27,075 bases of DNA from Candidatus Jordarchaeales archaeon (lineage in GTDB: Archaea; Asgardarchaeota; Jordiarchaeia; Jordiarchaeales; Freyrarchaeaceae): assembly GCA_038858525.1 (NCBI GenBank), contig JAWCFL010000024.1:1-27075 (forward strand). The letters run 5' to 3'. The translations under genes were made by a program, and so were the position numbers. The notes beneath the pieces were generated by a model, which ran no database searches, was not told the origin of the DNA, and saw nothing but the letters and a program-made list of their open reading frames with translations. Numbering within the stretch: position 1 is the first letter of the stretch; the number at the start of each line of letters is the position of its first letter. This document shows, one piece after another, positions 815 to 17,810 of the stretch.

Positions 815-1747
815 CTAATCTCTTTTCTTCCTTTTAATGTGCCTTGACGCGTTTATAGCTGCCATGGCTCCTTCTCCCGCCGCAGTTACGACTTGCATTC
901 CACCACACGTGCAGTCTCCAGCTGCAAAGACCCCCTCGATGTTTGTTCTTTGCCAACGGTCAACTTTAACGCAGCCTTTCTCGTCAACTTCTACGCCTGC
1001 TTTTTTTACCAGCTCACTCGTAGGCACTCCGCCGAGAGAAATGAAAACGCCGTCAGCAGGGAGAACGTCTTCTCTTCCATCTTCGTATATTATTTTGACG
1101 TGTTCAACGCTATCTTTCCCACCTATCTCTGTAACACGTGCCTCGATCACTTTTACACCCTTACTCCTAATTCTCCGTATTAAGTCTTCGGCAGCTTCAA
1201 GAGGCGCGCCATGAGTTACCAGTACAACTTCACCCGCCAAGTCAGTTAAGAAGAGGGCGTCGGCCGCTGCCTCCTCGCCAGAGCCAACTACTATTACTCT
1301 AAGTCCTTTGAAGAACGCGCCGTCACATACGGGGCAGTAGCTTACTCCCCGCCCTAAAAACTCGGACTCTCCAGGTATTCTGATCTTACGTCTCTGGGTT
1401 CCAGTAGCAATTATCACGGCCATAGACAGGTAGCTACCCTTCCTGGTTGTGACCTTTTTAAGTGGACCCTTCAGGTCTAGGTCTATGGCCTCTTCGAATG
1501 TTCTTATCTCGGCGCCAAACTTTGAGCATTGCTTAACCATTCTTTCCACGAGCTCAACGCCAGCTATGCCTTCAGGGAAACCAGGATAGTTCTCTATGAA
1601 GGGGGCTTCTCCTGCTCTTCCACCCGGGATGCCGCTCTCCAAGATGAGAGTCCTTAAGCCGAGCCTAGAAGAATATATTCCAGCCGTTAGCCCAGCTGGA
1701 CCAGCACCCAATATGACCAAGTCGTATACTTGTTCCTCTTGGCTCAA
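815..1747 (-). CDS. trxB: Thioredoxin-disulfide reductase
   Basis: GAGPAG FAD motif, GRGVSYCPVCDG CxxC, GSGEEA NADPH-site variant, GVFAAGD; TTG start. Confidence 0.95.
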   Translation of the reverse strand: MSQEEQVYDLVILGAGPAGLTAGIYSSRLGLRTLILESGIPGGRAGEAPFIENYPGFPEGIAGVELVERMVKQCSKFGAEIRTFEEAIDLDLKGPLKKVTTRKGSYLSMAVIIATGTQRRKIRIPGESEFLGRGVSYCPVCDGAFFKGLRVIVVGSGEEAAADALFLTDLAGEVVLVTHGAPLEAAEDLIRRIRSKGVKVIEARVTEIGGKDSVEHVKIIYEDGREDVLPADGVFISLGGVPTSELVKKAGVEVDEKGCVKVDRWQRTNIEGVFAAGDCTCGGMQVVTAAGEGAMAAINASRHIKRKKRD

Positions 1748-1817
1748 AACATATCACCAAAAGAGTTTTTAGTCGTTCAATAATTTTGAGTCGATGATTT
1801 ATATTTGGTTTTGGTGT

Positions 1818-1837
1818 GTTTAGCTTTTTAGCTAAAC
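1818..1837. promoter_or_regulatory. Perfect 8-bp inverted repeat GTTTAGCT-tttt-AGCTAAAC in the trxB/cysK divergent region
   Basis: Read directly from sequence; function inferred only from position. Confidence 0.35.
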
Positions 1838-1890
1838 TAGTTTGTATTAGTGTCGTTGTGATTATGTGAGTTTCTTGTTGTGTGATAAAT

Positions 1891-1932
1891 TTTATAAGGA
1901 AGTTATAACAGCGTTATTATAACAGCGTTATA
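1891..1932 (+). promoter_or_regulatory. TATA-like box (TTTATAAG) followed by two tandem ATAAC-AGC-GTTAT palindromes just upstream of the cysK ATG
   Basis: 14-bp unit TTATAACAGCGTTA at 1903-1916 and 1917-1930; second copy extends to TATAAC-AGC-GTTATA (1918-1932). Confidence 0.6.
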
Positions 1933-1935
1933 TAA

Positions 1936-2862
1936 ATGGTGGTAGAAGTGAAAGTGGCGAACGACATTACAGAGCTTATAGGTGGAACTCCGATTGTTAA
2001 GTTAAGGAGGGTTGTGGAGCCCGGCTCAGCCACAGTTTACGCCAAACTGGAATGGTACAACATAGGTGGGTCTGTGAAGGACAGGATGGCTTACTACATT
2101 TTGAAGCACGCTGAGGCTGCAGGGAAACTTAGCAAGGACAAAGTAATACTTGAGGCCACCTCCGGTAACACAGGCATATCCCTAGCTATGTTGGCCGCGG
2201 CGAAAGGGTATAGAGTAGCGATAGTTATGCCTGAGTCCGTAAGCGAGGAAAGGCGGAAGATAATTAAGGCTTTTGGTGCCGACCTTATTCTTTCACCCGG
2301 AGAGAAGGGAACAGGAGGCGCCATAGAGTTAAAGCAAAGGTTACTAATGGAGAACCCTGACATTTACGTTGACATAGACCAATTCCGTGACCCAGCAAAT
2401 ATCCTGGCGCATTATGAAACGACAGGGAAGGAGATAATTGAGCAAACACAAGGGAAAGTAGATATGGTCGTTGTTGGCGTGGGAACAGCCGGGACAGGTG
2501 TTGGAACGTCAATGCGGCTTAAGGAATATAACTCAGAGATAAAAGTGGTTGGAGTTGTTCCTAAGCTCGGCGTGAGCATTCAGGGACTCAGAAATCCTAA
2601 TGAGCCGTATCCGACTCAGCTTTTCAGAAGAGAATGGTTCGATGAAATAGTGGAAATTCCGAAGGAACTGGTACCTGAAACGTTTGATGTCGCTAGAAAA
2701 ATAGCGAGAATGGAGGGGTTGCTGATAGGAATGAGCGCTGCAGCAATAATGTACGTCGCCCTGAAAAAGGCAAAGGAGCTTGGTCGGGGAAAAACCATAG
2801 TGGCAGTATTGCCAGATAACGGGCTAAAGTACCTTAGTACACCACTTTACAATTCACAGTAA
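1936..2862 (+). CDS. cysK: PLP-dependent cysteine synthase (CysK/CysM family; possibly O-phosphoserine sulfhydrylase)
   Basis: GGSVKDR PLP lysine, EATSGNTG, GVGTAGT, GMSAAA; SIQGLR segment resembles CysM-type enzymes. Confidence 0.92.
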   Translation: MVVEVKVANDITELIGGTPIVKLRRVVEPGSATVYAKLEWYNIGGSVKDRMAYYILKHAEAAGKLSKDKVILEATSGNTGISLAMLAAAKGYRVAIVMPESVSEERRKIIKAFGADLILSPGEKGTGGAIELKQRLLMENPDIYVDIDQFRDPANILAHYETTGKEIIEQTQGKVDMVVVGVGTAGTGVGTSMRLKEYNSEIKVVGVVPKLGVSIQGLRNPNEPYPTQLFRREWFDEIVEIPKELVPETFDVARKIARMEGLLIGMSAAAIMYVALKKAKELGRGKTIVAVLPDNGLKYLSTPLYNSQ

Positions 2863-3017
2863 GACTCCATAGACGGTAAGTGAAGGTTAGTGTTAAGAAC
2901 TGGTTGAAACTAACTGCGGGTCTTTTAGAGGCTATGAGCGCCGTGATGCCAAGTCTTGCTTATTTAAATACTTAATTTAATAAAATAAGTCGTATAATGT
3001 TTTTTGGTGGTGGTTTC

Positions 3018-3398
3018 ATGCGTCCTCCATGTGAACTTGTTATAAAATGCGTGCTTCCGGTTGTACGTTCTCTCGTGGCTAAGGAGCTCATCGAGAGACA
3101 TGGCTTTTCTCAGGTGGCTGCAGCCAAAAAACTTGGAGTTACTCAGGCTGCGATCAGTCATTATCTGTATTCGAAGCGTGGAATGAAATATTTGGAGAGA
3201 GTAAGTTCGATAGGCGACATGAGCCGACTGGTCAAGGAATTGGCTGATGGAATAGCTAGTGGGGCTATGTCTGATGCGGAGTTAGTGACGCGGCTTTGCG
3301 GCGTATGTTCGAGCATGCGTTCTCAGCGTTTGCTGTGTGACATACATAAAGGTTTTGGGAATCTGCCCGACACATGCAACCTTTGTACGGACATATGA
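3018..3398 (+). CDS. Archaeal HTH regulator (COG2522-like) with a Cys-rich C-terminus
   Basis: MRPPCE..LPVVRSLVAKELIERHGFSQVAAAKKLGVTQAAISHYL; C-terminal CGVC..CDIH..CNLC; ATG 3018 follows GGTGGTGG SD. Confidence 0.8.
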   Translation: MRPPCELVIKCVLPVVRSLVAKELIERHGFSQVAAAKKLGVTQAAISHYLYSKRGMKYLERVSSIGDMSRLVKELADGIASGAMSDAELVTRLCGVCSSMRSQRLLCDIHKGFGNLPDTCNLCTDI

Positions 3399-3637
3399 GC
3401 ATGGAAGCACATCATATTTGGCGTGTTAACCAATTCTGGCTCCACTTTTTCATGCATGATTCCGAACAAAACACGTAGAGCTTATTGACGCAACAGGTTT
3501 TCCTCGTTATTGGTTTGCCCTTTATAAGTTGGCCACAGGTTTGACACCTCATTTTTCCGCCTCCACGCATCTGCCTTTCTTAACAATAGTTAATTTTATT
3601 AATGTTTCGACACTAAAAACACTTAAGGTGGAGTAAT

Positions 3638-4435
3638 ATGACAGCTGAGGAATATGGGGAGCTCGATGAGGCGATAATTACAAGAGCAATTATTGAGAGC
3701 TCCGCTAGGATGCTAGTTGATGCTTCAAATACGGACGTCGTAGTAGTTGGAGCTGGACCAGCGGGACTTACAGCGGCGAGATACCTCGCTAAGTCCGGCC
3801 TAAGAACAGTTGTTTTCGAGAGAAAACTCTCCTTTGGAGGCGGTCTAGGTGGAGGAGGGATGCTCTTCCCCAAAATTGTGATCCAGAAGCCGGCAGACGA
3901 AATTTTAAGGGATGTTGGCTGCCCACTTGAAAAATTCGACGAGAAGCTCTTTCTAGCAGATGCCGCAACGGTAATGGCGAAGCTAGCTGTCGGAGCTGTA
4001 GACGCCGGCGCAAGAATAATTTTCGGCGTCACGGTGGACGACGTGATATTCAGAAAGGGAGAGAGGGAGGCGAAGATAGTAGGAGTCGTAGTTCAGTGGA
4101 CTGCCGTAATAATGTCCGGGATACACGTTGACCCGCTGAGCATTAGAAGCCGAGCGGTTGTTGACGCAACTGGTCACGACGCTGAGATACTTACAATTGC
4201 CTCGAGAAAGATTCCAGAACTTGGACTAACTGTTCAAGGCGAAAAATCCATGTGGGCTGAGGAGGCAGAAAGACTGACTGTTGAAAAAACAGGAAGAGTT
4301 TGCCCTGGGCTATACGCCGCCGGGATGGCTGTTGCAGCGCTACACCAAACGCCACGCATGGGACCTATTTTTGGCGGAATGCTACTGAGTGGGCGAAAAG
4401 TTGCGGAAATCATACTTAAAGACCTTCAAAGATGA
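3638..4435 (+). CDS. thi4: Sulfide-dependent adenosine diphosphate thiazole synthase (non-Cys Thi4)
   Basis: [24 protein letters not shown] (His at the suicide-Cys position), [21 protein letters not shown]. Confidence 0.95.
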
Positions 4436-4526
4436 AGACGATGGCTCAAATGAAGTAGACCTGAGCTACTGCACTTTGAAAGGTGAAAGAAAAAGTGAGT
4501 TACCTGATCTGCTAGGAAAACAATAA

Positions 4527-5357
4527 ATGCCTTTAAGGCTTGTTTTCCCTGTGAGTCTTATGCTTCAGCCGAGTGTAAAGGTTAAGGTTAAAAAAGTCGA
4601 CCTTTTTAGAGGTAAGATTGATACCGTTGATGACTGGGTATCGGTAGAGACGGCCGTGGTACTGTACATTAACGGAGAGCGTGCGACCACTTTCCTGTCG
4701 CTTCCATCACAGCTAAAGGAGCTTTGCGTTGGATGGCTACTGACTCAGTCCATAGTAGACTCAGTTGATGATATTGAAAGCGTGCAGGTTGAAAATGGGA
4801 AGGTAAGGGTTCGTTGTAGTAAAAACATTAAAGCTCGACTGAAAGCTTTAGGGCCACCAGTAGTTACAGATTCAGCATGCGGCTCTGAAAACACTTCGTA
4901 CTTTTATCTTATAGACAGGATCACGAAGCCCTTTGTAGATTCGAAATACAGAGTCAAAGCAGAAGATTTATCGTCATTCATGAAGGTTCTTAATGAGAAA
5001 GCTCAGCTTTTCAAGCTTACAGGAGGCACCCACTCTGCTGCGTTGTTTAGCAACGGGGAGCTTGTGGCGTTCGCTGAAGACGTTGGGCGACATAACACAG
5101 TTGACAAAGTAGTGGGTTCCGCCGCGCTAAATAAAGCAGACTTCTCCAGCTCAGTTCTAGTAAGTACAGGCAGGCAACCAGCAAGCATGGTTATGAAGGC
5201 TGCGCGCGTCGGTATTCCAATAATAGCATCCATTTCAGCTCCCCTATACTCAGGAATAATTGCAGCGGAGCAAGCCGGAGTAACATTAGTATGCTTCGTG
5301 CGGGGAAAACGGATGAACATCTACACTCACCATGAAAGAATAACAGGAGTTTTTTGA
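4527..5357 (+). CDS. fdhD: Formate dehydrogenase accessory sulfurtransferase
   Basis: DSACG Cys motif, TGGTHSAA, EDVGRHNTVDKVVG, STGR, SAP. True start may lie a few codons downstream. Confidence 0.93.
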   Translation: MPLRLVFPVSLMLQPSVKVKVKKVDLFRGKIDTVDDWVSVETAVVLYINGERATTFLSLPSQLKELCVGWLLTQSIVDSVDDIESVQVENGKVRVRCSKNIKARLKALGPPVVTDSACGSENTSYFYLIDRITKPFVDSKYRVKAEDLSSFMKVLNEKAQLFKLTGGTHSAALFSNGELVAFAEDVGRHNTVDKVVGSAALNKADFSSSVLVSTGRQPASMVMKAARVGIPIIASISAPLYSGIIAAEQAGVTLVCFVRGKRMNIYTHHERITGVF

Positions 5358-5583
5358 GCCATCTAAACTTGAAGATATTCTTAAACTTAGAGAAGGCGAT
5401 TTTCAAACTAAGTTTTTAAACCATGATGGGCGCCTATGCCCTGAAGATGGCCTCTTTGGCTAAATAGTGACAGGGAACTTCTATCACTAGCAGGAAAATA
5501 GAATAGAAGTAAGATGTACTGGGGAGAAAAGGGGCGAGTTGAAGTGTGGAAAAGAAGAAGTGTTTCCCTTTAATGATGGCAAG

Positions 5584-5853
5584 TTATTCCAAGATTTTTT
5601 TAAGTGTTTTTTCCACTTCTTTTCTGTCTCCGGCGTTTTTGAATATTACTCGGCCCGTCTTGTAAACCTTTAAAGTTTTTCCGTTGTAACTCACGTCGAA
5701 CATTATTCCTGATAGAGAGTTTAAGACCTCGCCGCGCTCAATTATTTTGTTTATAGCTTCGTTCCTTTTGGCATGTTTGAAGGTGACTATGAAGTCTCTT
5801 CCTTCCCCGCAAGCTTCCTCTATGCTGGCGACGTACTCTTCTATCTCTGGCGT
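5584..5853 (-). CDS. 89-aa protein absent from the ORF track, apparent ACG start; resembles the small alpha/beta domain at the N-terminus of COG4871 proteins and C-terminus of some ThiF/MoeB proteins
   Basis: Hand translation: (M)PEIEEYVASIEEACGEGRDFIVTFKHAKRNEAINKIIERGEVLNSLSGIMFDVSYNGKTLKVYKTGRVIFKNAGDRKEVEKTLKKILE*; GGAGGGG SD 5 nt before ACG; overlaps the sufS end by 13 nt. Confidence 0.75.
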   Translation of the reverse strand, partial: TPEIEEYVASIEEACGEGRDFIVTFKHAKRNEAINKIIERGEVLNSLSGIMFDVSYNGKTLKVYKTGRVIFKNAGDRKEVEKTLKKILE

Positions 5854-7103
5854 TTTAACCCCTCCGATACCTCCCTCAGAACCTCAACAAAACGGTCTAC
5901 TTCTTCCCGAGTATTATAAACGTAGAAGCTCGCTCTAACAGACGACTTCAGCCCTAAGTGCTGGTGTAGTGGTTGGGCGCAGTGGAAGCCGCTTCGAACC
6001 ATTATTCCGAACTGGTCTAGTAGGAGCGCTAGGTCATGTGAGTCTAGACCATCCATGTTGAAAGGTATTATTCCGCACCTATCTATTTCCCTTCCTGGAC
6101 CATAAGTCTTTAAAGTGCTCACTTCCCTAAGCTTGTCTAGAGCGTAGATGGTTAAGTTCCTCTCGTGCTCGTGCACGTTTTCCATACCTAGTCGCTTCAA
6201 GTATCTCACCGCCTCCATGAGACCGACGGCGCCACAAACATTTGGTGTTCCGGCTTCAAACTTCCAAGGCAGTTCGTTCCACGAAATCCTTAGTCTCCCT
6301 TCGTTATGAGTGTAGGTGACCTCTTTTATCATGTCACCCCCAAAAAGAAATGGTTCTCCTCCCTCTAATAGCTCACGCTTAGCGTAAAGGACGCCTATCC
6401 CCGTTGGTCCAAGCATTTTGTGGCCGGAGAACGCCAGGAAATCCACGTCTAGTTTTTTGACGTCCACTGGCATATGAGGAACAGACTGGGCTCCGTCTAC
6501 GAGGAGTAGTGCGCCATGTTCGTGTGCGAGTTTTGAGATTTTCTCTATATCGTTGATTACACCTGTAACGTTTGAAGCATGTGTCACACAAACAAAGCGT
6601 GTCTTTCCAGTTACAAGTTGCTCTAGACTTTCGTAGTTTAGAGTGCCGTCGTAATTAACACCCGCATACTTAACCTTGAACTTCTTTATTCTTGAGAGAG
6701 ATTCCCATGGAACAAGGTTGCTGTGGTGCTCCATCAGCGTGACAACCACTTCGTCTTCAGGGTTCAGTTTTAACCCCCAAGAGTAGGCTACGAGATTTAT
6801 CGCTTCGGTGGCGTTTTTCACGAAGACTACTTCCTCGTAGCTCTCAGCGTTTATGAAGCTTGCTACTTCTTTATGTGCTTCCTCGTAGAGCTCGGTTGCC
6901 TCTTGGGATAACGTGTGAACAGCCCTGTGAATGTTGGCGTTGCTTTTCTCATAAAACTCTCTCATCGCTTCTATCACGCTTATCGGCTTCTGCGACGTCG
7001 CTGCATTATCGAAGTAAACTAGGGGGTAACCATTCACAGTCCTCTTAAGTATGGGAAAGTCTTCCCTGACCCTGTAAGGGTCAAGCAACGCTACTACCCC
7101 CAA
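5841..7103 (-). CDS. sufS: Cysteine desulfurase, SufS (group II) type
   Basis: YFDNAATSQKP, MEHHSN, DGAQS, SGHKMLGPTG, EAGTPN, RSGFHCAQP, SVRASF: all catalytic residues present. Confidence 0.95.
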   Translation of the reverse strand: MGVVALLDPYRVREDFPILKRTVNGYPLVYFDNAATSQKPISVIEAMREFYEKSNANIHRAVHTLSQEATELYEEAHKEVASFINAESYEEVVFVKNATEAINLVAYSWGLKLNPEDEVVVTLMEHHSNLVPWESLSRIKKFKVKYAGVNYDGTLNYESLEQLVTGKTRFVCVTHASNVTGVINDIEKISKLAHEHGALLLVDGAQSVPHMPVDVKKLDVDFLAFSGHKMLGPTGIGVLYAKRELLEGGEPFLFGGDMIKEVTYTHNEGRLRISWNELPWKFEAGTPNVCGAVGLMEAVRYLKRLGMENVHEHERNLTIYALDKLREVSTLKTYGPGREIDRCGIIPFNMDGLDSHDLALLLDQFGIMVRSGFHCAQPLHQHLGLKSSVRASFYVYNTREEVDRFVEVLREVSEGLKRQR

Positions 7104-7584
7104 TTCTCTTAGCGAGCCTCTTCGCCAACTCTTCTTCCTCTAAAGCCTGTCTCTCCTCGAAAGTTATATCCTTTGGAAGCCAGTCAGGTGTCTTCCCTTT
7201 TCTTTTGTAATATTCTCTTATGGCTCTCCTCATCGCGCCAACAGCTAATACGCCGCAGTGAAACTTAACCGAGGGCAGGCCACCAACCTCCTCTGAAACT
7301 TGCTTCCAAGAGATCTCCCATGCTTCTTTCAGCGTCTTACCTTTCACCATTTCTGTCAGGATGCTCGAAGTGGCTATGTTAGCGGCGCACCCATAGCTCT
7401 CAAAGCTAGCCCGCTCTATAACTTCGTTTTCACTCACCTTAAGGTAGAAAGTTATCATGTCACCGCATGCAGGGTTACCTGCAACTGCCCAAGCATCGGC
7501 ATCCTCCATTCTGCCGAGGTTTTTCGGGTTCCTGAAAAGATCCAAGATCTTCGGGCTATAAGGAAGCGGAGCCCTAGACAACAA
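7081..7584 (-). CDS. iscU: Fe-S cluster scaffold IscU/NifU-like
   Basis: GNPACGDMI, YGCAANIATSS, KFHCGVLA (three Cys plus Asp); charged C-terminal extension. Confidence 0.92.
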   Translation of the reverse strand: MLSRAPLPYSPKILDLFRNPKNLGRMEDADAWAVAGNPACGDMITFYLKVSENEVIERASFESYGCAANIATSSILTEMVKGKTLKEAWEISWKQVSEEVGGLPSVKFHCGVLAVGAMRRAIREYYKRKGKTPDWLPKDITFEERQALEEEELAKRLAKRIGGSSVA

Positions 7585-8802
7585 TTATCCCCCCATACTC
7601 CCATATATCATTCTAAGTCTAGATACAGCTTCCCGTATGGATTGGAGGACGTACTCGATGTCCTCGTCTGTATGGTAGCGTGTAACCTTCATCAGGATGC
7701 TTCCATGCGCCTCCTCAAATCTTCTTCCAATGGCGAGCAGCACGTGGCTTGGCTGAAGAATACGTCTCGTGCAAGCACTTCCACTCGAAACATAAACCCC
7801 TCTTAAACTAAGCTCGACGGTCAATGATTCGCCTTCACACTTAAGGAAGCTAACGTTAACGTTATCCGGCGCCCTCCTATCCCCTAATGGCCCATTAAGA
7901 ATAGTTCCATCTAAGCCGTTCAGTATTCCACTTATAAGTTTGTCTCTGAGACGCGCCATGTGCGCAACGTTCCCATCAAAGTTGCTGAAGGCTTTCTCTG
8001 ACGCGGCGGCGAAACCGACAATTAATGGAGTATTTTCGACGCCGGGCCACAGTTTCTGCGTTCCAAACTGCCCCTCCAGTATCTTCTCGAGGGAGACGCC
8101 ACCCTTAACGTATAGGGCGCCAATTCCTCTTGGACCCAGAATCTTGTAGCTGCTTATTGTTGCAAGGTCAACGTCGAGGCGGCCCACATCAAACCTTACT
8201 CTTCCGTAGGCGTCAGAAGCATCCGTGTGGAAAATGGCTTCGGGGCTCTTGTCCTTCACTATCTCGACGGCCTCTCTAAGCGGCTCAATGGTTCCTATCT
8301 CGTTGTTTACAGCCATAAAGCTAGCCAAAATCACTTCGCGGTCAGCGAGCTCCTTTAGCCTCTCAAGGTTAATGAAACCTTCTTCATCGACGGGAACATT
8401 CACAGTTGTGAAACCATAATTTTCCAGCATACGGCAGACGTGAAGGATGCTTAGCGGCTCAACCTCTGACACAAGTATCTTTCGTCCCTTCTCCTTACGT
8501 CTAAGCGCGGCACCTATTAGAGCCAGGTTGTTCGCTTCAGTCTCACCCGGAGTGAAGTTTATCTCTTCTGGCTCCTTAGAGCCGATAAAGCTGGCGATTT
8601 TTTCAGCAGATTTCGATATCGCCTCGTACGCCTCCCAGCCCGGCTTATGCGTCAGCGTCGGGTTCCCATAAGCAACTCTGTTGAAGTATGGAAGCATCAC
8701 TTCAAGGATCTCGCCGGGTACGGGGCTGGAATTCTCGAAATCCAAGTAAACTTCCCTTTTCAGCTCGCCATGCGCTTTAATTAGCTCCTCGACATCTCCC
8801 AA
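7585..8802 (-). CDS. iscS: IscS/NifS-like (group I) protein with a degenerate PLP/substrate site
   Basis: Family scaffold clear (GNP, TEANN, VNNEIG, YKILGP, SSGSACT, PSHVL), but several active-site residues are substituted (see findings). Confidence 0.85.
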   Translation of the reverse strand: MGDVEELIKAHGELKREVYLDFENSSPVPGEILEVMLPYFNRVAYGNPTLTHKPGWEAYEAISKSAEKIASFIGSKEPEEINFTPGETEANNLALIGAALRRKEKGRKILVSEVEPLSILHVCRMLENYGFTTVNVPVDEEGFINLERLKELADREVILASFMAVNNEIGTIEPLREAVEIVKDKSPEAIFHTDASDAYGRVRFDVGRLDVDLATISSYKILGPRGIGALYVKGGVSLEKILEGQFGTQKLWPGVENTPLIVGFAAASEKAFSNFDGNVAHMARLRDKLISGILNGLDGTILNGPLGDRRAPDNVNVSFLKCEGESLTVELSLRGVYVSSGSACTRRILQPSHVLLAIGRRFEEAHGSILMKVTRYHTDEDIEYVLQSIREAVSRLRMIYGSMGG

Positions 8803-8846: not shown

Positions 8847-8861
8847 TATAACATAGTTATA
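8847..8861. promoter_or_regulatory. TATAAC-ATA-GTTATA palindrome 45 nt upstream of the iscS-like operon
   Basis: Same half-sites and 3-nt spacer as the cysK-upstream motif. Confidence 0.6.
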
Positions 8862-8968
8862 AGAGTTTCGTATTTAAACAGCGAAACTATCCCTCTTCGA
8901 AAAAGCTTTATTTTCCCTCTCCTTCAAGTAAGCTAGCTTCCCTCCAAAAGTGAATACAAGAAAGGTGA

Positions 8969-10264: not shown

Positions 10265-11524
10265 TTATTTCTTTTTTATGGAGGCGAGGATGGCGGCTCC
10301 GTGTGGTACCACTTTGATTTTTGCGTTTTTCCCGATCGTTTCGAGTGCTTTTCTCAGCCCGTCTTCCACGCTTTCGATCGGTGTTACGTTAAAGACGTTC
10401 TCTAGTTCTTCTGCTGGGAGGGAGGACAGCATGAATATTTTTACTTTTTCTAGGGCTTTCGCCAGGTAGTAGGCTTTGTGTCCACCCATCTTGAAGTTGC
10501 TTTTCAGTCTTTTTTCCATTTCGTCTATGCTTAGTTTTTCTTTCATCCACTCGTAGAAAACTTGGTTTCCGACTCCATCTCTACATTCTGCTAGGAAGAT
10601 TACGCATCCTCCGTCTTTCACCATTGGGATTACGTTGTCTAGTGCTTTGTGTGCCTGGTAGAAGTCGATGTCCTTTGGGTATCCTCCGGCGCTCAGTATG
10701 ATTATGTCGGCGGGTTCGCTTTCAGCCTTGTAGAGGCTGTCGACAAGCTTTACGCCTTCCATGAAGGCCGCTTCAAGGTCTCCGCTGAAAGCCCGGACTA
10801 TTTCGCCCTTAGTGTTCTGGACCACGTTCACTATGAAGTCTGGTTTGGCTAGGCGGGCCGCTTCTGTCATGTCGAGGTGTACTGGGTTGCCGTCGAGCAC
10901 GCCACTCCTAGCGGCTGGGTGAAGCATCATGGCGTGGTTGAAGAGTATGGTTTCCCGCGCCGAGACACCTGGAAGTATGCTCTTCCGCCCACCTGTGTAT
11001 CCCGCATAGTAATGGAAAGTTATGTCGCCGGTGAGTATCTTTGCATCCGCCTCCGCCACTAGAGAGTTAATATAAATCCTGTTGCCGAAGGAGGTCTCAC
11101 CGAGGAAGGTTAAGTTGCCGTCGCAGTCATGGCTAACCCACTCATACTTGCTCCAAACGTCTTCTCCCAGTATTGCCTTCGCCTCGTCGTCTTTCACCTT
11201 CCTGTGAGTGCCGCAGCCAAAAATTATGGTTATGTCCCTGCTTGGGAAACCTATCTCGTCGAGTTCGCCGAGGAGGGCCGCCAGAATCTCGCGTGTCCTA
11301 GTGTCCCTCGTGTGGTCGTTCACCACTATGACGGCGTCACGCTTACCCCTCATCACCACGTGAAGGGGTGGACTACCTATCGGGTTCCTGATGCTTCTTT
11401 TGATTTCGCCCACCGGGTTGGCGCATCCCGGCACGTCTCTGACCTCGAGTGTACCGGCGAAGTTCTCGTCGGGCACTTCAAAACTCACTTCGGTAGAGCC
11501 GTACTTCAAAGCGAACTTAACCAA
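10265..11524 (-). CDS. larA: Nickel-pincer-dependent lactate racemase family protein (LarA), copy 1
   Basis: NDHTR, CGTHR, FHYYAGYTGGRKSILPG, FNH, GGYPKDIDFYQAHKA; start placed at TTG 11524 after a GGTGG SD. Confidence 0.9.
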   Translation of the reverse strand: MVKFALKYGSTEVSFEVPDENFAGTLEVRDVPGCANPVGEIKRSIRNPIGSPPLHVVMRGKRDAVIVVNDHTRDTRTREILAALLGELDEIGFPSRDITIIFGCGTHRKVKDDEAKAILGEDVWSKYEWVSHDCDGNLTFLGETSFGNRIYINSLVAEADAKILTGDITFHYYAGYTGGRKSILPGVSARETILFNHAMMLHPAARSGVLDGNPVHLDMTEAARLAKPDFIVNVVQNTKGEIVRAFSGDLEAAFMEGVKLVDSLYKAESEPADIIILSAGGYPKDIDFYQAHKALDNVIPMVKDGGCVIFLAECRDGVGNQVFYEWMKEKLSIDEMEKRLKSNFKMGGHKAYYLAKALEKVKIFMLSSLPAEELENVFNVTPIESVEDGLRKALETIGKNAKIKVVPHGAAILASIKKK

Positions 11525-11635
11525 GAAACCACCCAGAATACGAGTAACATGAACACCTATAAAAATTCTCCAGAACGACAAAAAAGATATATTTCGGGAT
11601 AAATTGACCTACAAACAGAAAGTTAAACCGGGAGA

Positions 11636-12153: not shown

Positions 12154-12840
12154 GTGTTTTTGGGAAGGTATATTAGGATAATTTGTCCCATTATGACGGT
12201 GAGGGATGCTATAATGTATGTTGTTCCTAGGTCTGTTCGGGCTTCGCTTATCGGGGTTTTCACTGCTGCGGCTGTAGCTGGCACCTTTGCTCTTTCGCCT
12301 CTGCCTAACGTCGAAATTATCACGTTTTGCGCTTTTGTTGCTGGCTTTCTTTTTGGTAGTAGGGTCGGCGGCATGGTAGGCGCCCTGTCAATGTTTCTTT
12401 TTAGCGCTATTTCGCCTTATGGCTCAGGTTTAGGTTACCCTTTCCTGCTCCTTACTCAAGTCGTCGGGATGTCCATTGCCGGCTTAGTTGGAGGCTCACT
12501 CAGAAAAGTGCTCAGAAACCTCAAGTCGACTTCCCCCTGGTCCATGTATGTCTTTGGCGTGTCTGGAATCGCAGTCACTCTACTATATGACGCCATCACG
12601 ACTTTGGGTTTCATGTATCCCATGATTCCTTTCTCTGAGTTTCCCTCGGTTTTCGCTGCTGGAATTCCCTTTACCGTTGTCCACGTGGCGAGCAACGCTG
12701 TTCTCCTTGGCGTCGTGGCGCCATTCGTTGCGAGGTCTATTAGGTCAATGCTTGGAGAAGTTGAGGTTGAGTCTCACATCGCGGAAAAAAGGCTTCATGA
12801 AGTTGAAGGGGAGGATGCCGCCGAGACACGGCATGTGTAG
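12154..12840 (+). CDS. ECF transporter S component (CbrT-like, probably corrinoid)
   Basis: About 6 TM helices, LPNVEIITF motif, GIPFTVVHVASN; next to a DUF4430 gene; start uncertain. Confidence 0.75.
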   Translation: MFLGRYIRIICPIMTVRDAIMYVVPRSVRASLIGVFTAAAVAGTFALSPLPNVEIITFCAFVAGFLFGSRVGGMVGALSMFLFSAISPYGSGLGYPFLLLTQVVGMSIAGLVGGSLRKVLRNLKSTSPWSMYVFGVSGIAVTLLYDAITTLGFMYPMIPFSEFPSVFAAGIPFTVVHVASNAVLLGVVAPFVARSIRSMLGEVEVESHIAEKRLHEVEGEDAAETRHV

Positions 12841-12879
12841 GTTTTCCAAGCACATTACTCCTGCGGTGCCGTCTCTTAA

Positions 12880-12899
12880 TTGTTCCAGGCTGTCGAAAA
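12880..12899. repeat. TSD TTGTTC plus TIR at the tnpB 3' end
   Basis: TTGTTC|CAGGCTGTCGAAAA read directly. Confidence 0.9.
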
Positions 12900-13020
12900 A
12901 TTTGACTTCCTCTCTCAGCTCTGCTGGGTTCACCTCATCGGCATATAAGCCTTGACACCCCAGCTTCATTACGCTCACAGAGAGGCTTTCGGCGGAGCCT
13001 GAACCTCGCCACATCTTGAG
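12886..13020 (-). ncRNA. Putative omega-RNA scaffold overlapping the tnpB 3' end
   Basis: Position is as established for TnpB omegaRNAs; stems AGGCT/AGCCT, GGC-TTATAT-GCC, CAGC-AGA-GCTG; boundaries inferred. Confidence 0.5.
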
Positions 13021-13755
13021 CATGTTTAAACAAGCATTTATGTCCCTGTCTAAACCGCATTTTGGGCAGGTTTTCTCCATTGGAGCTATTTTTCCTCCGC
13101 ATCTGGAGCATATGCTGGAAGTTTTATGGGGGTTAAAATAAACCACATCAAAGCCATTCAACTTGTGCTTGTAATCAAGTAAGAATTGAAGTTTCCTGAA
13201 GCTCCATGTGTTCAGCCTTCGCTTGAGGTTCTTATTTCTTAAAGAGACTGGTTGGATTCTCTTACTAAACTTGTTGAACTTCTTAACCTTATAGTTTATG
13301 GCCTTCCTTATGTTCCTCAAGTCCTCCATGACGAGCGTTTTGCCTTTCGTTATCTCTGAAAGCCATTTTGTCAATTTGTGGAGCAAATCATGGACTCTGC
13401 GTTTTCTCCTCCCGGAATATTTAGCATAGAGGACCTTCTTAATCTTTGAATCCCCAATCCTTTGAATCCTTCTAAGCTTCCTTGAATAGGCTTCATGGAT
13501 TGCCCTAAGCTTGGAGGTATCTATCTTCCAGCAATTTCCAGAAGAATCAACCACTGTCACACTACACTCGTTAACATCTACAATACACTCATCTGGTCTC
13601 GTCAGATCGATCTCCTGTTTAAATGGAACTATTACCCAATTCATTCATTACAATCTCGCCTATCCTAAGCTTTCCCTCCCTCCAAAGCTTAATGAACTTC
13701 TCCTGGTAGCTCCCGAACTTCAAAGGGATTGTCAGGAACTCCCTTGGCTTGGCTG

Positions 13756-15488: not shown

Positions 15489-16643
15489 TTGAATGTTGAC
15501 GGAGTGCTTCTTAGCGGGGCGAGCGTAGCCCCCTCTTCGCCGTTGGGCGAACTTGTGGAGGAAAGTTTGAGGTTACCTGTTAAGTCAAAAAGGGTGGAGG
15601 AGCTTGATGGTGGAAGCGCCGTTATTCTTGTCGATGACTATACGCGAACAACTCCGGTGAGAGAAATTTTGCCGGTGGTTTTAGAGAGACTTAAGGTGGA
15701 TGGAGACGTCTCCGTGGTTGTAGCGTCTGGAACCCATAGGAAGATGAGTGAGGAGGAGCTGAAAAAGAAAATTGGTGAGGTATATTGGGAGCTCCCTGTT
15801 TTTCAACATGACCCAGATGAAAGACTGGTTTTTCTGGGTGAGACCTCGCGGGGGACGCCTGTATGGATTAATGAGCTTGCCGCTAGGGCCGACGTCCTCG
15901 TATCCATAGGTTCTGTGGCGCCTCACAACTTTTATGGGTGGAGTGGAGGGGCGAAGATCGTTTTGCCGGGAGTGGCAGGGAGGGAAAGCATATCGTGTAA
16001 CCATAAGTTGGCTGAGCATCCAGATGCGCGTCTAGGAAACCCGGAGAGCCCGGCAAGACTTGATGCTGAGGAGGCGGCGAAGAAGCTTAGGACCTTTTTC
16101 TCCATCAACGTGGTTAAGAACGTGAGGAGTGAGGTTGTCCATGTTTCTTCTGGAGATGTTGTTGCCGCTCATAGGGCTGCAGTGGAGGTGGCTATGAGAG
16201 TTATTGGTGTTAAAGCCCCCTGGGCTTCCGACGTGACAATAGTGAGCTCGCACCCTTACGATAATGACTTATGGCAGGCTGGAAAGGCCCTCTTCTCCGC
16301 TGCCAACATTACTAGGGAGGGAGGAACCATAATACTGCTATCCCCCATGAGGGAAGGCGTATGCGTGCACTATCCTCAATTCGAGCGCCTTCTTTCCTTA
16401 CCGCCTGAGGAAATAAGTAAAGAGGCTGCTAGTGCACCTCTGGAAGCCACTGTTGCTCTCCAAATAAAGAGGATGCAAGAAAGGTTTAACTGCATCATAA
16501 TTTCTGACGGAGTGACCGGAGAGCAGGCGGAGAGGATGGGGTTTAAGTGGTTTTCTTCGCCGCAGGAGGCGATTGACCAAAGCTTGAAGAGAAACGGAAG
16601 GGTGACTGTTATTCCCAACCAGCTTATTTACCCTTATCGGTGA
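15489..16643 (+). CDS. larA: LarA-family 2-hydroxyacid racemase/epimerase, copy 2
   Basis: VDDYTR, SGTHR, PHNFYGWSGGAKIVLPG, CNH, HPYDNDLWQAGKA. Confidence 0.88.
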   Translation: MNVDGVLLSGASVAPSSPLGELVEESLRLPVKSKRVEELDGGSAVILVDDYTRTTPVREILPVVLERLKVDGDVSVVVASGTHRKMSEEELKKKIGEVYWELPVFQHDPDERLVFLGETSRGTPVWINELAARADVLVSIGSVAPHNFYGWSGGAKIVLPGVAGRESISCNHKLAEHPDARLGNPESPARLDAEEAAKKLRTFFSINVVKNVRSEVVHVSSGDVVAAHRAAVEVAMRVIGVKAPWASDVTIVSSHPYDNDLWQAGKALFSAANITREGGTIILLSPMREGVCVHYPQFERLLSLPPEEISKEAASAPLEATVALQIKRMQERFNCIIISDGVTGEQAERMGFKWFSSPQEAIDQSLKRNGRVTVIPNQLIYPYR

Positions 16644-16649
16644 TAGAAA

Positions 16650-17810
16650 GTGAGGCGTTACAGGCTTTTGATGAGTGTGGGTCCAACGGAGTGCCCTCCA
16701 TACGTGTTAAAGGAGATGAGCAGACCAATCTACGACTTGAGAGACAGGGACCTCATTGAGATACACCTCGAAAACCTAGAATTGCTGAGGAGAATTTTCC
16801 ACTCAAGTGGTAAAATAATGGTGTTTGCCAGCTCGTCCTTCTCGGCGATGGAGGCGGCTATAGCTAACCTGGTTGAGCCGGGAGATCCGGTTCTCGTCAT
16901 CAATTCCGGGTTTTTCTCAGGGTTTATGGCTGAAATGGCTCAGATCCATGGGGGGCGCGTTTTTCTCACTCCGAGTTTCGAGGAGCAGCCGATCACCCTA
17001 GACGCCTTTGAAAATGCCCTGAGCGAATGTGATGCTAAAGTGGTCTGTATGGTTCATAATGAGACCGGGACGGGGCTTAGGACTCCTATAGAGAGACTTT
17101 GCCTGCTAGCTCATAGTTATGATGCTCTAACCGTGGTGGACGTAGTTTCCACGTTGGGCGGCATGAGGGTTGACGTGGACGGTTGGAGGATTGATGTCGC
17201 CTTCGCCGGCTGCCAAAAGTGCCTTAACGTTCCCCCAACACTGTCAGTGGCCTCAATAAGTGAAAGGGCTTGGCAGAGCTTCGAAAACAGGAAAAATCCC
17301 GTCAAATTATGGTATCTAAACTTTAAAACGCTAAAAATGGCGATTGGCGAAAAGCCAATTTTTCCATACACCTTCCCCATACACTCTATACTAGCACTTA
17401 ACGCCTCGCTAAAACATTTGTTGGCTGAGGGGCTTGAAAACGTTTACGAGCGACACAAGAGAGAGTCAACCGTGGCGAAGAGATTTGTAAGAGAGTTGGG
17501 TCTCTCGATGCATAACCGTTGCGAGGCGTGTCCCGGATGTGAGAATGAAGAGGCTTACTGTGCACTAACCGTAACGGCGTTCAAGACCCCGATACAAGCG
17601 ATGAAAGTCGTTGAGAAAATGGAGCATGACCACGGCGTAAGAATATCAGCTGGACTAAGAGAGCATCAAGAAGACGTCTTGAGAATTGGACACATGGGGT
17701 GGCAAGCACAACCACCATTCACTAAAGCTACTTTAACCTCTCTCGCATCCACACTGAAGAATCTAGGATTAAAGTTAAATTATGAGGAAGCCTTAGCGGG
17801 GCTTCTCTAG
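16650..17810 (+). CDS. Class V aminotransferase (alanine/serine-glyoxylate aminotransferase-like)
   Basis: GPTECP, VHNETGTG, VDVVSTLGG, GCQKCL PLP lysine, LRIGHMG. Confidence 0.88.
   Translation: MRRYRLLMSVGPTECPPYVLKEMSRPIYDLRDRDLIEIHLENLELLRRIFHSSGKIMVFASSSFSAMEAAIANLVEPGDPVLVINSGFFSGFMAEMAQIHGGRVFLTPSFEEQPITLDAFENALSECDAKVVCMVHNETGTGLRTPIERLCLLAHSYDALTVVDVVSTLGGMRVDVDGWRIDVAFAGCQKCLNVPPTLSVASISERAWQSFENRKNPVKLWYLNFKTLKMAIGEKPIFPYTFPIHSILALNASLKHLLAEGLENVYERHKRESTVAKRFVRELGLSMHNRCEACPGCENEEAYCALTVTAFKTPIQAMKVVEKMEHDHGVRISAGLREHQEDVLRIGHMGWQAQPPFTKATLTSLASTLKNLGLKLNYEEALAGLL

Follow-up and report, generated by a model that had tools for sequence, protein, structure and literature searches.

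An IscS-like protein with an altered cofactor pocket and an invariant loop cysteine, encoded with IscU and SufS in uncultured archaea

Introduction

What might a protein with a cysteine desulfurase fold contribute to the building of iron-sulfur (Fe-S) clusters when many of the residues that surround pyridoxal 5'-phosphate (PLP) and the substrate have been replaced and the loop cysteine has been kept? This question is raised by a gene on contig JAWCFL010000024.1 of a Candidatus Jordarchaeales archaeon (GenBank assembly GCA_038858525.1), the first 27,075 nucleotides of which form the window analysed here. The gene encodes an IscS-like (IscS/MisS-like) protein and is followed by genes for the scaffold protein IscU, the type II cysteine desulfurase SufS and a small cysteine-containing protein. 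A previous reading of this DNA, made from sequence only, had proposed that the IscS-like protein is a pseudoenzyme with an eroded active site, acting as a ligand or adaptor in a division of labour in which SufS makes the sulfur. We show here that the pocket is a fixed and conserved alternative state rather than an eroded one, and we favour, with odds a little better than even, a role as a non-catalytic adaptor.

Inactive IscS proteins were known earlier as an oddity of Archaeoglobus and from one suspected paralog, the IscS1 protein of Methanosarcina. The protein described here belongs to a large and strongly conserved family that has evolved the same idea independently. Its members, which the databases label as cysteine desulfurases, occur in Bathyarchaeia, in many further groups of Thermoproteota and in several lineages of Asgard archaea. 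The source genome, a 2.09-Mb metagenome-assembled genome (MAG) with 92.7% completeness, belongs to a hot-spring Asgard archaeon, and the closest named relatives of the IscS-like protein are encoded by Candidatus Jordarchaeales and Freyarchaeota.

Results and Discussion

Residues lost and retained in the IscS-like protein

The IscS-like protein has a class-V aminotransferase fold (178 bits against Pfam Aminotran_5, PF00266, over residues 18-384) and its matches in the PDB are IscS, NFS1 and NifS enzymes, with E values from 1e-85 down to 1e-68. Its scores lie under the NCBIfam cut-offs for the canonical enzymes (353.9 versus 530.75 for TIGR03402 NifS, 308.9 versus 643.2 for TIGR02006 IscS and 305.8 versus 548 for NF010611), reaching about half to two-thirds of the values required. 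Selenocysteine lyase, CsdA, DndA and SepCysS were considered as identities and rejected, since the scores are far below the respective cut-offs and these families keep the His, Gln and Arg set that is replaced here.

Substitutions were read from a MAFFT alignment with Escherichia coli IscS (from NC_000913, strain MG1655) and are given in E. coli numbering, with the residue of the window protein in brackets. The PLP-stacking residue His104 is replaced by proline (Pro116) and Gln183, which binds O3' of the cofactor, by aspartate (Asp197), both positions being identical in 116/116 canonical enzymes. Arg354, which binds the substrate carboxylate, is likewise present in all 116 canonical sequences and is leucine (Leu370) in 67/67 sequences of the family. 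Two of the phosphate ligands, Thr76 and Ser203, are kept, and the two others are replaced: H205Y (Y219) and, contributed by the other subunit, T243V (V255). Further changes are S10E, A11N and T12S at the N-terminus (E23, N24 and S25), A75E (E87) beside Thr76, and R240W and S241P (W252 and P253). In E. coli IscS the substitutions H104Q, D180G, Q183E and K206A abolish activity and R354K does not (PMC9978102), so that two of the changes seen here, H104P and Q183D, strike residues known to be essential. The retained residues are T76, N155, D180 (D194) at the pyridine nitrogen, S203, the Schiff-base lysine K206 (K220) and the persulfide-forming C328 (C344, within SSGSAC). The long, mobile loop that carries this cysteine matches that of E. 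coli in length and does not vary within the family. The alignment bears out every substitution listed in the sequence-only reading, as well as the retention of the lysine and of the SSGSAC cysteine, apart from a slip of numbering by which Thr243 was given as Thr241.

When 90 columns that are at least 80% conserved among the 116 canonical type I enzymes are considered, type A members of the family (defined below) keep 66 and type B members 61. The lost columns (11-13, 38, 55, 75, 96, 104, 151, 155 in part, 183, 205, 211, 233, 236, 240, 243, 354 and 380) make up the shell around PLP and substrate together with its surroundings, and the loss is thus local; all conserved columns between E. coli positions 245 and 343, which include the cysteine loop and the helix after it, are kept. 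New family-wide invariants have appeared, namely a histidine in a 14-residue N-terminal extension, Trp56 and an arginine three residues after the loop cysteine. Judging from the residue signatures, the pocket positions would together carry a formal charge of about +2 in the canonical enzymes and of about -3 in type A. An AlphaFold2 (AF2) model of the protein, computed from a 31-row alignment, has a mean predicted local distance difference test (pLDDT) score of 73.5, with the active-site loops below 50.

Conservation, selection and distribution of the family

Orthologs were taken from the 120 closest database clusters, which are 69-87% identical to the window protein and come from Jordarchaeales, Freyarchaeota, Bathyarchaeia and some MAGs assigned to 'Nitrososphaeria'. 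Across 121 orthologs (identity of at least 69%) residues E10, N11, E75, Y205, K206, W240, P241, C328 and L354 are invariant, P104 is found in 120/121 and D183 in 118/121; D180 is present in 114/121, with Pro or Glu in the other seven. The same residue pattern is seen in 46 species-level type A genome loci. The substitutions are therefore not unique to this assembly, which rules out recent decay, and the description of the active site as eroded is misleading, since the altered pocket has become fixed and is shared by hundreds of orthologs. In comparison with an 86%-identical Jordarchaeales ortholog the ratio of non-synonymous to synonymous substitutions (dN/dS) is 0.037 for the IscS-like gene, 0.024 for IscU and 0.056 for SufS; these ratios are approximate, as dS is near saturation. 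Purifying selection on the IscS-like gene is as strong as that on its neighbours.

In an exhaustive search of representatives clustered at 50% identity the family is set off by a gap, with one full-length relative at 54% followed by canonical NifS and IscS proteins at 45% or less. A total of 80 genome loci (of more than 580 reported) were recovered with a family alignment and sorted by their residues at E. coli positions 10, 11, 12, 75, 76, 104, 155, 180, 183, 203, 205, 206, 240, 241, 243, 328 and 354. Type A, with the signature E-N-S-E-T-P-[NH]-D-D-S-[YF]-K-W-P-[VI]-C-L, comprises 46 loci including the window, mostly from Bathyarchaeia with Jordarchaeales among the rest, and has lost both PLP histidines. 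Type B (E-N-S-G-T-H-H-D-D-S-H-K-W-P-V-C-L) keeps both histidines and Gly75 and already carries S10E, A11N, Q183D, R240W, T243V and R354L; it reaches into many TACK and Asgard lineages, its hosts including Thermoproteales, Desulfurococcales, Aigarchaeota, Nitrososphaeria, Methanomethylicia, Wolframiiraptor, Culexmicrobium and others. Type C, from Heimdallarchaeota, has the additional changes S203N, H205N and K206R, by which the lysine is lost. All three types keep the cysteine loop and an adjacent IscU. If catalysis had become dispensable, sister lineages would be expected to degrade different PLP ligands and never the cysteine, and this is the pattern observed: Cys328 is never lost, while different lineages lose different PLP ligands. 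We regard this as the strongest argument from the alignments that desulfuration chemistry may no longer be under selection.

Phylogenetic relationships were estimated from quick maximum likelihood trees (IQ-TREE), which carry SH-aLRT support only and were rooted on SufS or on the canonical enzymes. Types A, B and C form one clade (support 99) within which type A is a single group. Jordarchaeales and Freyarchaeota members fall among the type A sequences of Bathyarchaeia (support 96), which suggests that the operon was transferred into this Asgard lineage. The Lys-less proteins resembling that of Archaeoglobus are located elsewhere, grouped in the canonical set (support 98), so that the two kinds of inactive IscS arose independently. 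Among 151 genomes of the phylum to which the window belongs, orthologs with at least 74% identity are found in all four relatives from its own family, and relatives at 45-62% identity occur in several other Asgard families.

Operon partners and genome inventory

IscU is encoded directly downstream of the IscS-like gene in 44/45 type A and 17/19 type B loci that have room to judge. The window IscU possesses the complete set of cluster ligands (Cys40, Asp42, Cys66, His109 and Cys110), its best PDB match is Archaeoglobus fulgidus IscU (4eb5_C), and the genome has no other gene with a NifU_N domain. It scores 66.8 on the SufU model TIGR01994, for which the cut-off is 92.5, and its best models, NifU_clost and IscU, score well above this. 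The last 35 residues form a family-specific C-terminal tail with invariant Pro133, Trp135 and Glu144 and an invariant acidic run, Glu149-151, and might serve in docking.

In 36/41 type A loci the gene that comes next after IscU is that of SufS, with overlapping or abutting reading frames, and SufS is located within the locus in 39/41, although the genes that flank the operon are unrelated between Bathyarchaeia and Jordarchaeales. In type B loci SufS is never found directly after IscU, and lies within 4.5 kb in 11/17. Five type B genomes without an adjacent SufS, all incomplete MAGs, were searched; SufS is present elsewhere in three and candidates do not reach the family cut-off in two. The window SufS scores 568.2 on TIGR01979 (cut-off 475.1), and its catalytic motifs (His, Asp, Gln, Ser-Gly-His-Lys, Arg and Cys) do not vary among the orthologs. 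The intact SufS and the IscU next to the IscS-like gene are thus as the sequence-only reading had described them. The closest solved structures are those of SufU-dependent SufS enzymes (8d8s and 5xt5), and the position aligned with Bacillus subtilis His342 is histidine in the window protein and in 29/35 SufS orthologs. The true start of SufS is probably a few codons inside the listed open reading frame (ORF).

The genome, at the completeness given above, encodes one IscU as its sole U-type protein, one SufS and an SmsC/SmsB-like pair elsewhere; searches revealed no SufE, SufU, A-type carrier or canonical type I desulfurase. The other PF00266 matches that we checked are aminotransferases, and SufS is the only intact desulfurase in this genome. 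Complex predictions from alignments, in which the IscS-like protein and SufS were paired with IscU, gave neither support nor counter-evidence and are not used either way.

The sequence-only reading did not list a fourth gene of the operon. Homologs of this gene (about 89 amino acids, aa) are located directly after SufS in 29 type A loci and encode a protein with a single invariant cysteine near the N-terminus, in the motif E-x-[TA]-C-G, and a Y-x-S/T-G-K-A-I-F motif. The window and Jordarchaeales copies are 74% identical, with a dN/dS of 0.09. In both genomes the gene has no ATG, GTG or TTG start and was missed by ordinary ORF listing, and in the Jordarchaeales relative the gene caller shortened the product to 47 aa; in the window an ATA codon at the beginning of the gene overlaps the SufS stop codon (TAG). 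No Pfam family was matched by the fourth protein. Its profile matches archaeal TATA-binding protein (TBP; E 5.5e-4), and Foldseek comparison of the AF2 model (pLDDT 91) with the PDB gave weak TBP-like matches (TM about 0.5, E above 0.06). A different small protein of about 80 aa is encoded between IscU and SufS in six type B loci (five genome contigs and a second fetch of the Zestosphaera contig). It has an invariant cysteine in G-C-T-x-x-P, and its profile gives a weak match to the TusA/UPF0033 structure 3hz7 (E 0.009); the Pfam search with these proteins returned just one sub-threshold TusA match, for one protein (E 0.18). The fourth protein, with its Cys12, is a candidate extra sulfur relay.

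A perfect palindrome, TATAAC-N3-GTTATA, precedes the IscS-like gene, and the window contains four matches to it where 0.08 are expected, three of them in tandem before the cysteine synthase gene cysK. Exact copies are also found upstream of the IscS-like family gene in several distant archaeal lineages (Table 1). This distribution suggests a conserved site for a sulfur or cysteine regulator, and its occurrence at both cysK and the Fe-S operon fits a cysteine-linked regulon.

Possible functions of the IscS-like protein

We favour the view that the IscS-like protein is a non-catalytic adaptor, and put its probability at roughly 0.55 on the basis of the alignments and of analogy with A. fulgidus. 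The protein would be a descendant of a MisS/IscS-type desulfurase that has lost PLP and can no longer desulfurate free L-cysteine. It would still dimerise and dock the IscU encoded immediately downstream, by analogy with the (IscS-IscU)2 complex of A. fulgidus. Sulfur would be made from cysteine by the co-operonic SufS, and the cysteine on the mobile loop of the IscS-like protein could either supply the fourth ligand of the [2Fe-2S] cluster that is forming on IscU or act as a swinging carrier of persulfide; the fourth protein, with its own cysteine, may also take part. The division of labour proposed in the sequence-only reading is thereby favoured by the fixation of the substitutions, the selection on the gene, the varied loss of PLP ligands, the invariant cysteine loop and the gene order, although that proposal missed the fourth conserved gene with its invariant cysteine, which opens other routes for sulfur.

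Several observations weigh against this adaptor role. Types A and B never lose Lys206 and for the most part retain Asp180, Thr76 and Ser203, which would be unexpected for a pocket that is simply empty. The A. fulgidus IscS still binds pyridoxamine 5'-phosphate (PMP) or PLP without its lysine (PMC8918507), so by analogy a B6 cofactor or another ligand is possible in the IscS-like protein. In type B the PLP-binding set is complete except for Q183D and T243V, and the ancestor of the family may have been a PLP enzyme with a different substrate, as members may still be. The true clients of SufS could be the SmsBC scaffold or other pathways of thiolation, and its linkage to the IscS-like gene is loose in type B, as seen from the distances and the two genomes without a SufS above the cut-off.

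The invariant lysine and the nearly complete PLP set of type B sustain the main alternative, although we consider it unlikely: the IscS-like protein would still depend on B6 for catalysis, acting on a new substrate or in a new reaction. PLP or PMP would be held by the Schiff-base lysine, Asp180 and two phosphate ligands, and the pocket would have been rebuilt, through the change of Arg354 to leucine and the new Glu10, Asn11, Asp183 and Trp240, for a substrate whose carboxylate is not free, for example a cysteine that is esterified or bound to a protein, or a donor of persulfide. This would account for the presence of K206 in 67/67 type A and B sequences and of G75, T76, H104, D180, S203, H205 and K206 in type B, and the binding of PMP or PLP by the Lys-less A. 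fulgidus protein is in keeping with it; moreover, the residues that stand in for the canonical ones do not vary either, as would be expected of a newly selected site and not of drift. However, type A has a proline in place of the stacking histidine, a glutamate beside Thr76 and neither His205 nor Thr243, and tolerates Pro or Glu at Asp180, the lysine has become arginine in type C, and the E. coli variants Q183E and H104Q are inactive (PMC9978102). The change in pocket charge deduced from the signatures would also disfavour a phosphate dianion.

It is improbable that the IscS-like protein and IscU act as a pair in the manner of Archaeoglobus, independently of SufS, and build clusters from free sulfide in sulfidic hot springs. 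SufS would then be merely co-located and would serve SmsBC, the adjacent FdhD, or thiolation of tRNA or cofactors. The organism does come from hot-spring metagenomes, MIS and SMS systems can use sulfide (PMC13066941), type B SufS genes are often not adjacent and fdhD converges on the operon. Against these points stand the position of SufS directly after IscU in most type A loci of both Bathyarchaeia and Jordarchaeales despite their differing flanks, the lack in this genome of a SufE or SufU partner for SufS other than this IscU, and the candidate palindromic operator common to the operon and the cysteine synthase gene, which would tie the system to the supply of cysteine.

Two further proposals assign a new ligand to the former PLP pocket. 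In the first, which we regard as quite improbable, the IscS-like protein would be neither an enzyme nor a passive ligand: the charge-inverted pocket, with Glu10, Glu75, Asp180, Asp183 and His or Asn155 arranged around the retained lysine, would take up iron or a different cation, which the protein would pass to IscU together with sulfur derived from SufS. In the second, very doubtful, proposal the pocket has turned into a site for a cation or for iron, and IscU would receive iron from the protein and not sulfur. Carboxylates and imidazoles have indeed been gained (Glu10 and Asp183 throughout the family, Glu75 in type A, and His155 in every type B sequence and in half of those of type A) and both pocket arginines have been lost. 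The case for iron delivery is drawn from the sequences; no known family of iron donors is similar, and an invariant lysine at the centre of the site speaks against a bound metal. Finally, there is practically no chance that the IscS-like gene is decaying or an artefact of assembly or annotation, which is refuted by its intact frame, its dN/dS of 0.037, its near-identical sequence in independent runs (see below) and more than 120 orthologs with the same residues.

Features of the locus and neighbouring genes

The coordinates of the operon and of the features around it are collected in Table 1. An independent hot-spring sequencing run contains the sequence of the locus on a 135,920-nt contig with eight differences over 3 kb, and a second independent run shows no differences, so the IscS-like sequence is not an assembly artefact. 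In one metatranscriptome run, short, near-identical and gapped contigs cover parts of SufS and of the IscS-like gene; the RNA library may contain DNA, and we do not take these contigs to prove transcription or co-transcription. In some MAGs (L036, L042, L081, L090 and L091) the gene for the IscS-like protein or for SufS is broken up into two or three frames, and an in-frame TAG occurs in one genome of the same family (G075:C5:9388-10557); both are probably assembly errors.

A sulfur-related neighbourhood accompanies the operon and includes genes for a thioredoxin-reductase-like flavoprotein, cysteine synthase, the thiazole synthase Thi4 and the sulfurtransferase FdhD. The last of these adjoins the operon also in the Jordarchaeales relative and not in Bathyarchaeia. 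On the other side of the operon the window encodes two paralogs of the LarA (lactate racemase-like) family, the second of which is followed by a class-V aminotransferase of the pyridoxamine-pyruvate or aspartate-glyoxylate type. A 299-aa ORF with a Cas12f1-like TNB domain, resembling TnpB, is probably a mobile-element insertion, because it is missing from the otherwise syntenic Jordarchaeales locus L013.

Table 1. Features of the window and of related loci. Positions refer to the window unless a locus identifier is given.
Feature	Position	Strand	Description
Four-gene Fe-S cluster	8802 to ~5584	minus	IscS-like, IscU, SufS and small ORF; tightly packed
IscS/MisS-like protein, type A	7585-8802	-	405 aa, TTG start
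IscU-type scaffold	7081-7584	-	167 aa
IscU C-terminal tail	7081-7180		last 35 residues
Type II cysteine desulfurase SufS	5841-7103	-	about 415-420 aa, active site intact; listed ORF
Fourth gene, small Cys protein	5584-5844	-	~86 aa, TBP-like fold
ATA codon at beginning of fourth gene	5844-5842		overlaps SufS stop codon
Fourth-gene homologs in type A loci (examples)	L019:7453-7719, L012:8962-9228, L013:8957-9217		directly after SufS
Type B ~80-aa protein	L063:6230-6466, L062:6233-6538, L065:6364-6603, L068:6257-6499, L071:6224-6460		invariant Cys, G-C-T-x-x-P
Perfect palindrome TATAAC-N3-GTTATA	8847-8861	.	45 nt upstream of IscS-like start; candidate repressor site
Tandem copies of the palindrome	1893-1932		three, before cysK
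Exact palindrome copies in other lineages	L053:2653, L061:4158, L071:4471, L075:3792, L077:3786, L078:3785		upstream of IscS-like family gene
TATA-like tttaaata	8871-8878	-	palindrome 8847-8861 lies just downstream
Sulfur-related neighbourhood	815-5357		
Thioredoxin-reductase-like flavoprotein	815-1747	-	
Cysteine synthase cysK	1936-2862		
Thi4 thiazole synthase	3638-4435		
Sulfurtransferase FdhD	4527-5357		convergent on the Fe-S operon
LarA-family paralog, first	10265-11581	-	
TnpB-like ORF	12745-13644	-	299 aa, Cas12f1-like TNB domain
LarA-family paralog, second	15489-16643	+	
Class-V aminotransferase	16650-17810	+	

Implications

The searchable full-text literature yielded no description of this IscS-like family or of the four-gene module, the key phylogenomic paper on the MIS and SMS systems (Garcia et al. 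2022) being outside the texts covered. The type A operon, in which an IscS-like protein and IscU are joined by a type II SufS and a small cysteine-containing protein, combines the MIS and SUF lineages in a hybrid that occurs in nature, and were the IscS-like protein to deliver metal as well as sulfur, it would represent a four-protein archaeal Fe-S assembly machine that bridges these lineages. The operon bears on how SufS came to work with U-type proteins, on the fourth cluster ligand or sulfur relay in minimal archaeal systems, and on the way in which abundant uncultured archaea of sediments and hot springs make Fe-S clusters. It also matters for annotation, since the extent to which these genomes mobilise sulfur from cysteine is overestimated when IscS-like genes are counted as desulfurases.

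Comparison with known systems

The best solved-structure match of the IscS-like protein (E 1e-85) is IscS2 of A. fulgidus (PDB 4EB5, 4HVK and 4R5F), an inactive IscS in which the loop cysteine ligates the [2Fe-2S] cluster of IscU (PMC8918507; PMC7585200). The two proteins have in common the type I fold, an adjacent IscU, the retained loop cysteine and the change of Arg354 to leucine. They differ in that A. fulgidus IscS2 has lost the lysine (Asp199) and keeps His104, Arg240 and Ser or Thr at position 243, whereas the IscS-like protein keeps the lysine and has lost His104, Gln183, His205, Arg240 and Thr243; thus A. fulgidus reads SSNDIYG where the window protein reads SSYKILG. No coupling to SufS has been described for A. 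fulgidus. Sequences resembling the A. fulgidus protein (P0138, P0157 and L092) are located in a different clade from the IscS-like family and their degeneration is independent. The precedent to which the sequence-only reading appealed therefore stands as regards an inactive IscS with a cluster-ligating cysteine, as an analogue and not as a member of the same subclade. A further pairing of an inactive IscS with SufS is seen in another Asgard lineage: Candidatus Atabeyarchaeum deiterrae (L092) encodes an Archaeoglobus-like, Lys-less IscS (with S-N-D at the corresponding site; 4495-5676) and, about 500 nt downstream and with no IscU between them, a SufS-like protein (6173-7384).

E. coli IscS (PDB 1P3W) resembles the IscS-like protein in fold, overall length, the length of the cysteine loop with its SSGSAC motif, the C-terminal domain, Lys206 and Asp180, but 24/90 columns conserved among the canonical enzymes are changed, including the essential His104 and Gln183 and the invariant Arg354.

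The MIS system (MisS-MisU, represented by IscS2-IscU2 of Methanosarcina acetivorans, which also has the Lys-less IscS1) likewise consists of a two-gene core of IscS-like and IscU-like proteins without IscA, HscBA, Fdx or IscR, and is accompanied elsewhere in the genome by an SmsCB-like pair, as is the case here. The characterised MisS, M. acetivorans IscS2, is however a normal PLP desulfurase (PMC8918507; PMC7585200), whereas in the window a non-canonical protein occupies the MisS position and the operon adds a type II SufS and a small fourth protein.

With the SufS-SufU systems of B. subtilis and Staphylococcus aureus (PDB 5XT5 and 8D8S) the operon shares a SufS for which these are the nearest structures, a histidine at the His342 position, a U-type neighbour and a genome without SufE. 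The U-type protein of the window is nevertheless an IscU scaffold with His109-Cys110, where the zinc-type SufU has no histidine ahead of its third cysteine; it lacks the SufU insertion and scores below the SufU cut-off, and the third partner, with its desulfurase fold, has no counterpart in SufS-SufU. The operon thus combines an MIS-like core with a sulfur source of the SufS-SufU kind, and matches neither system.

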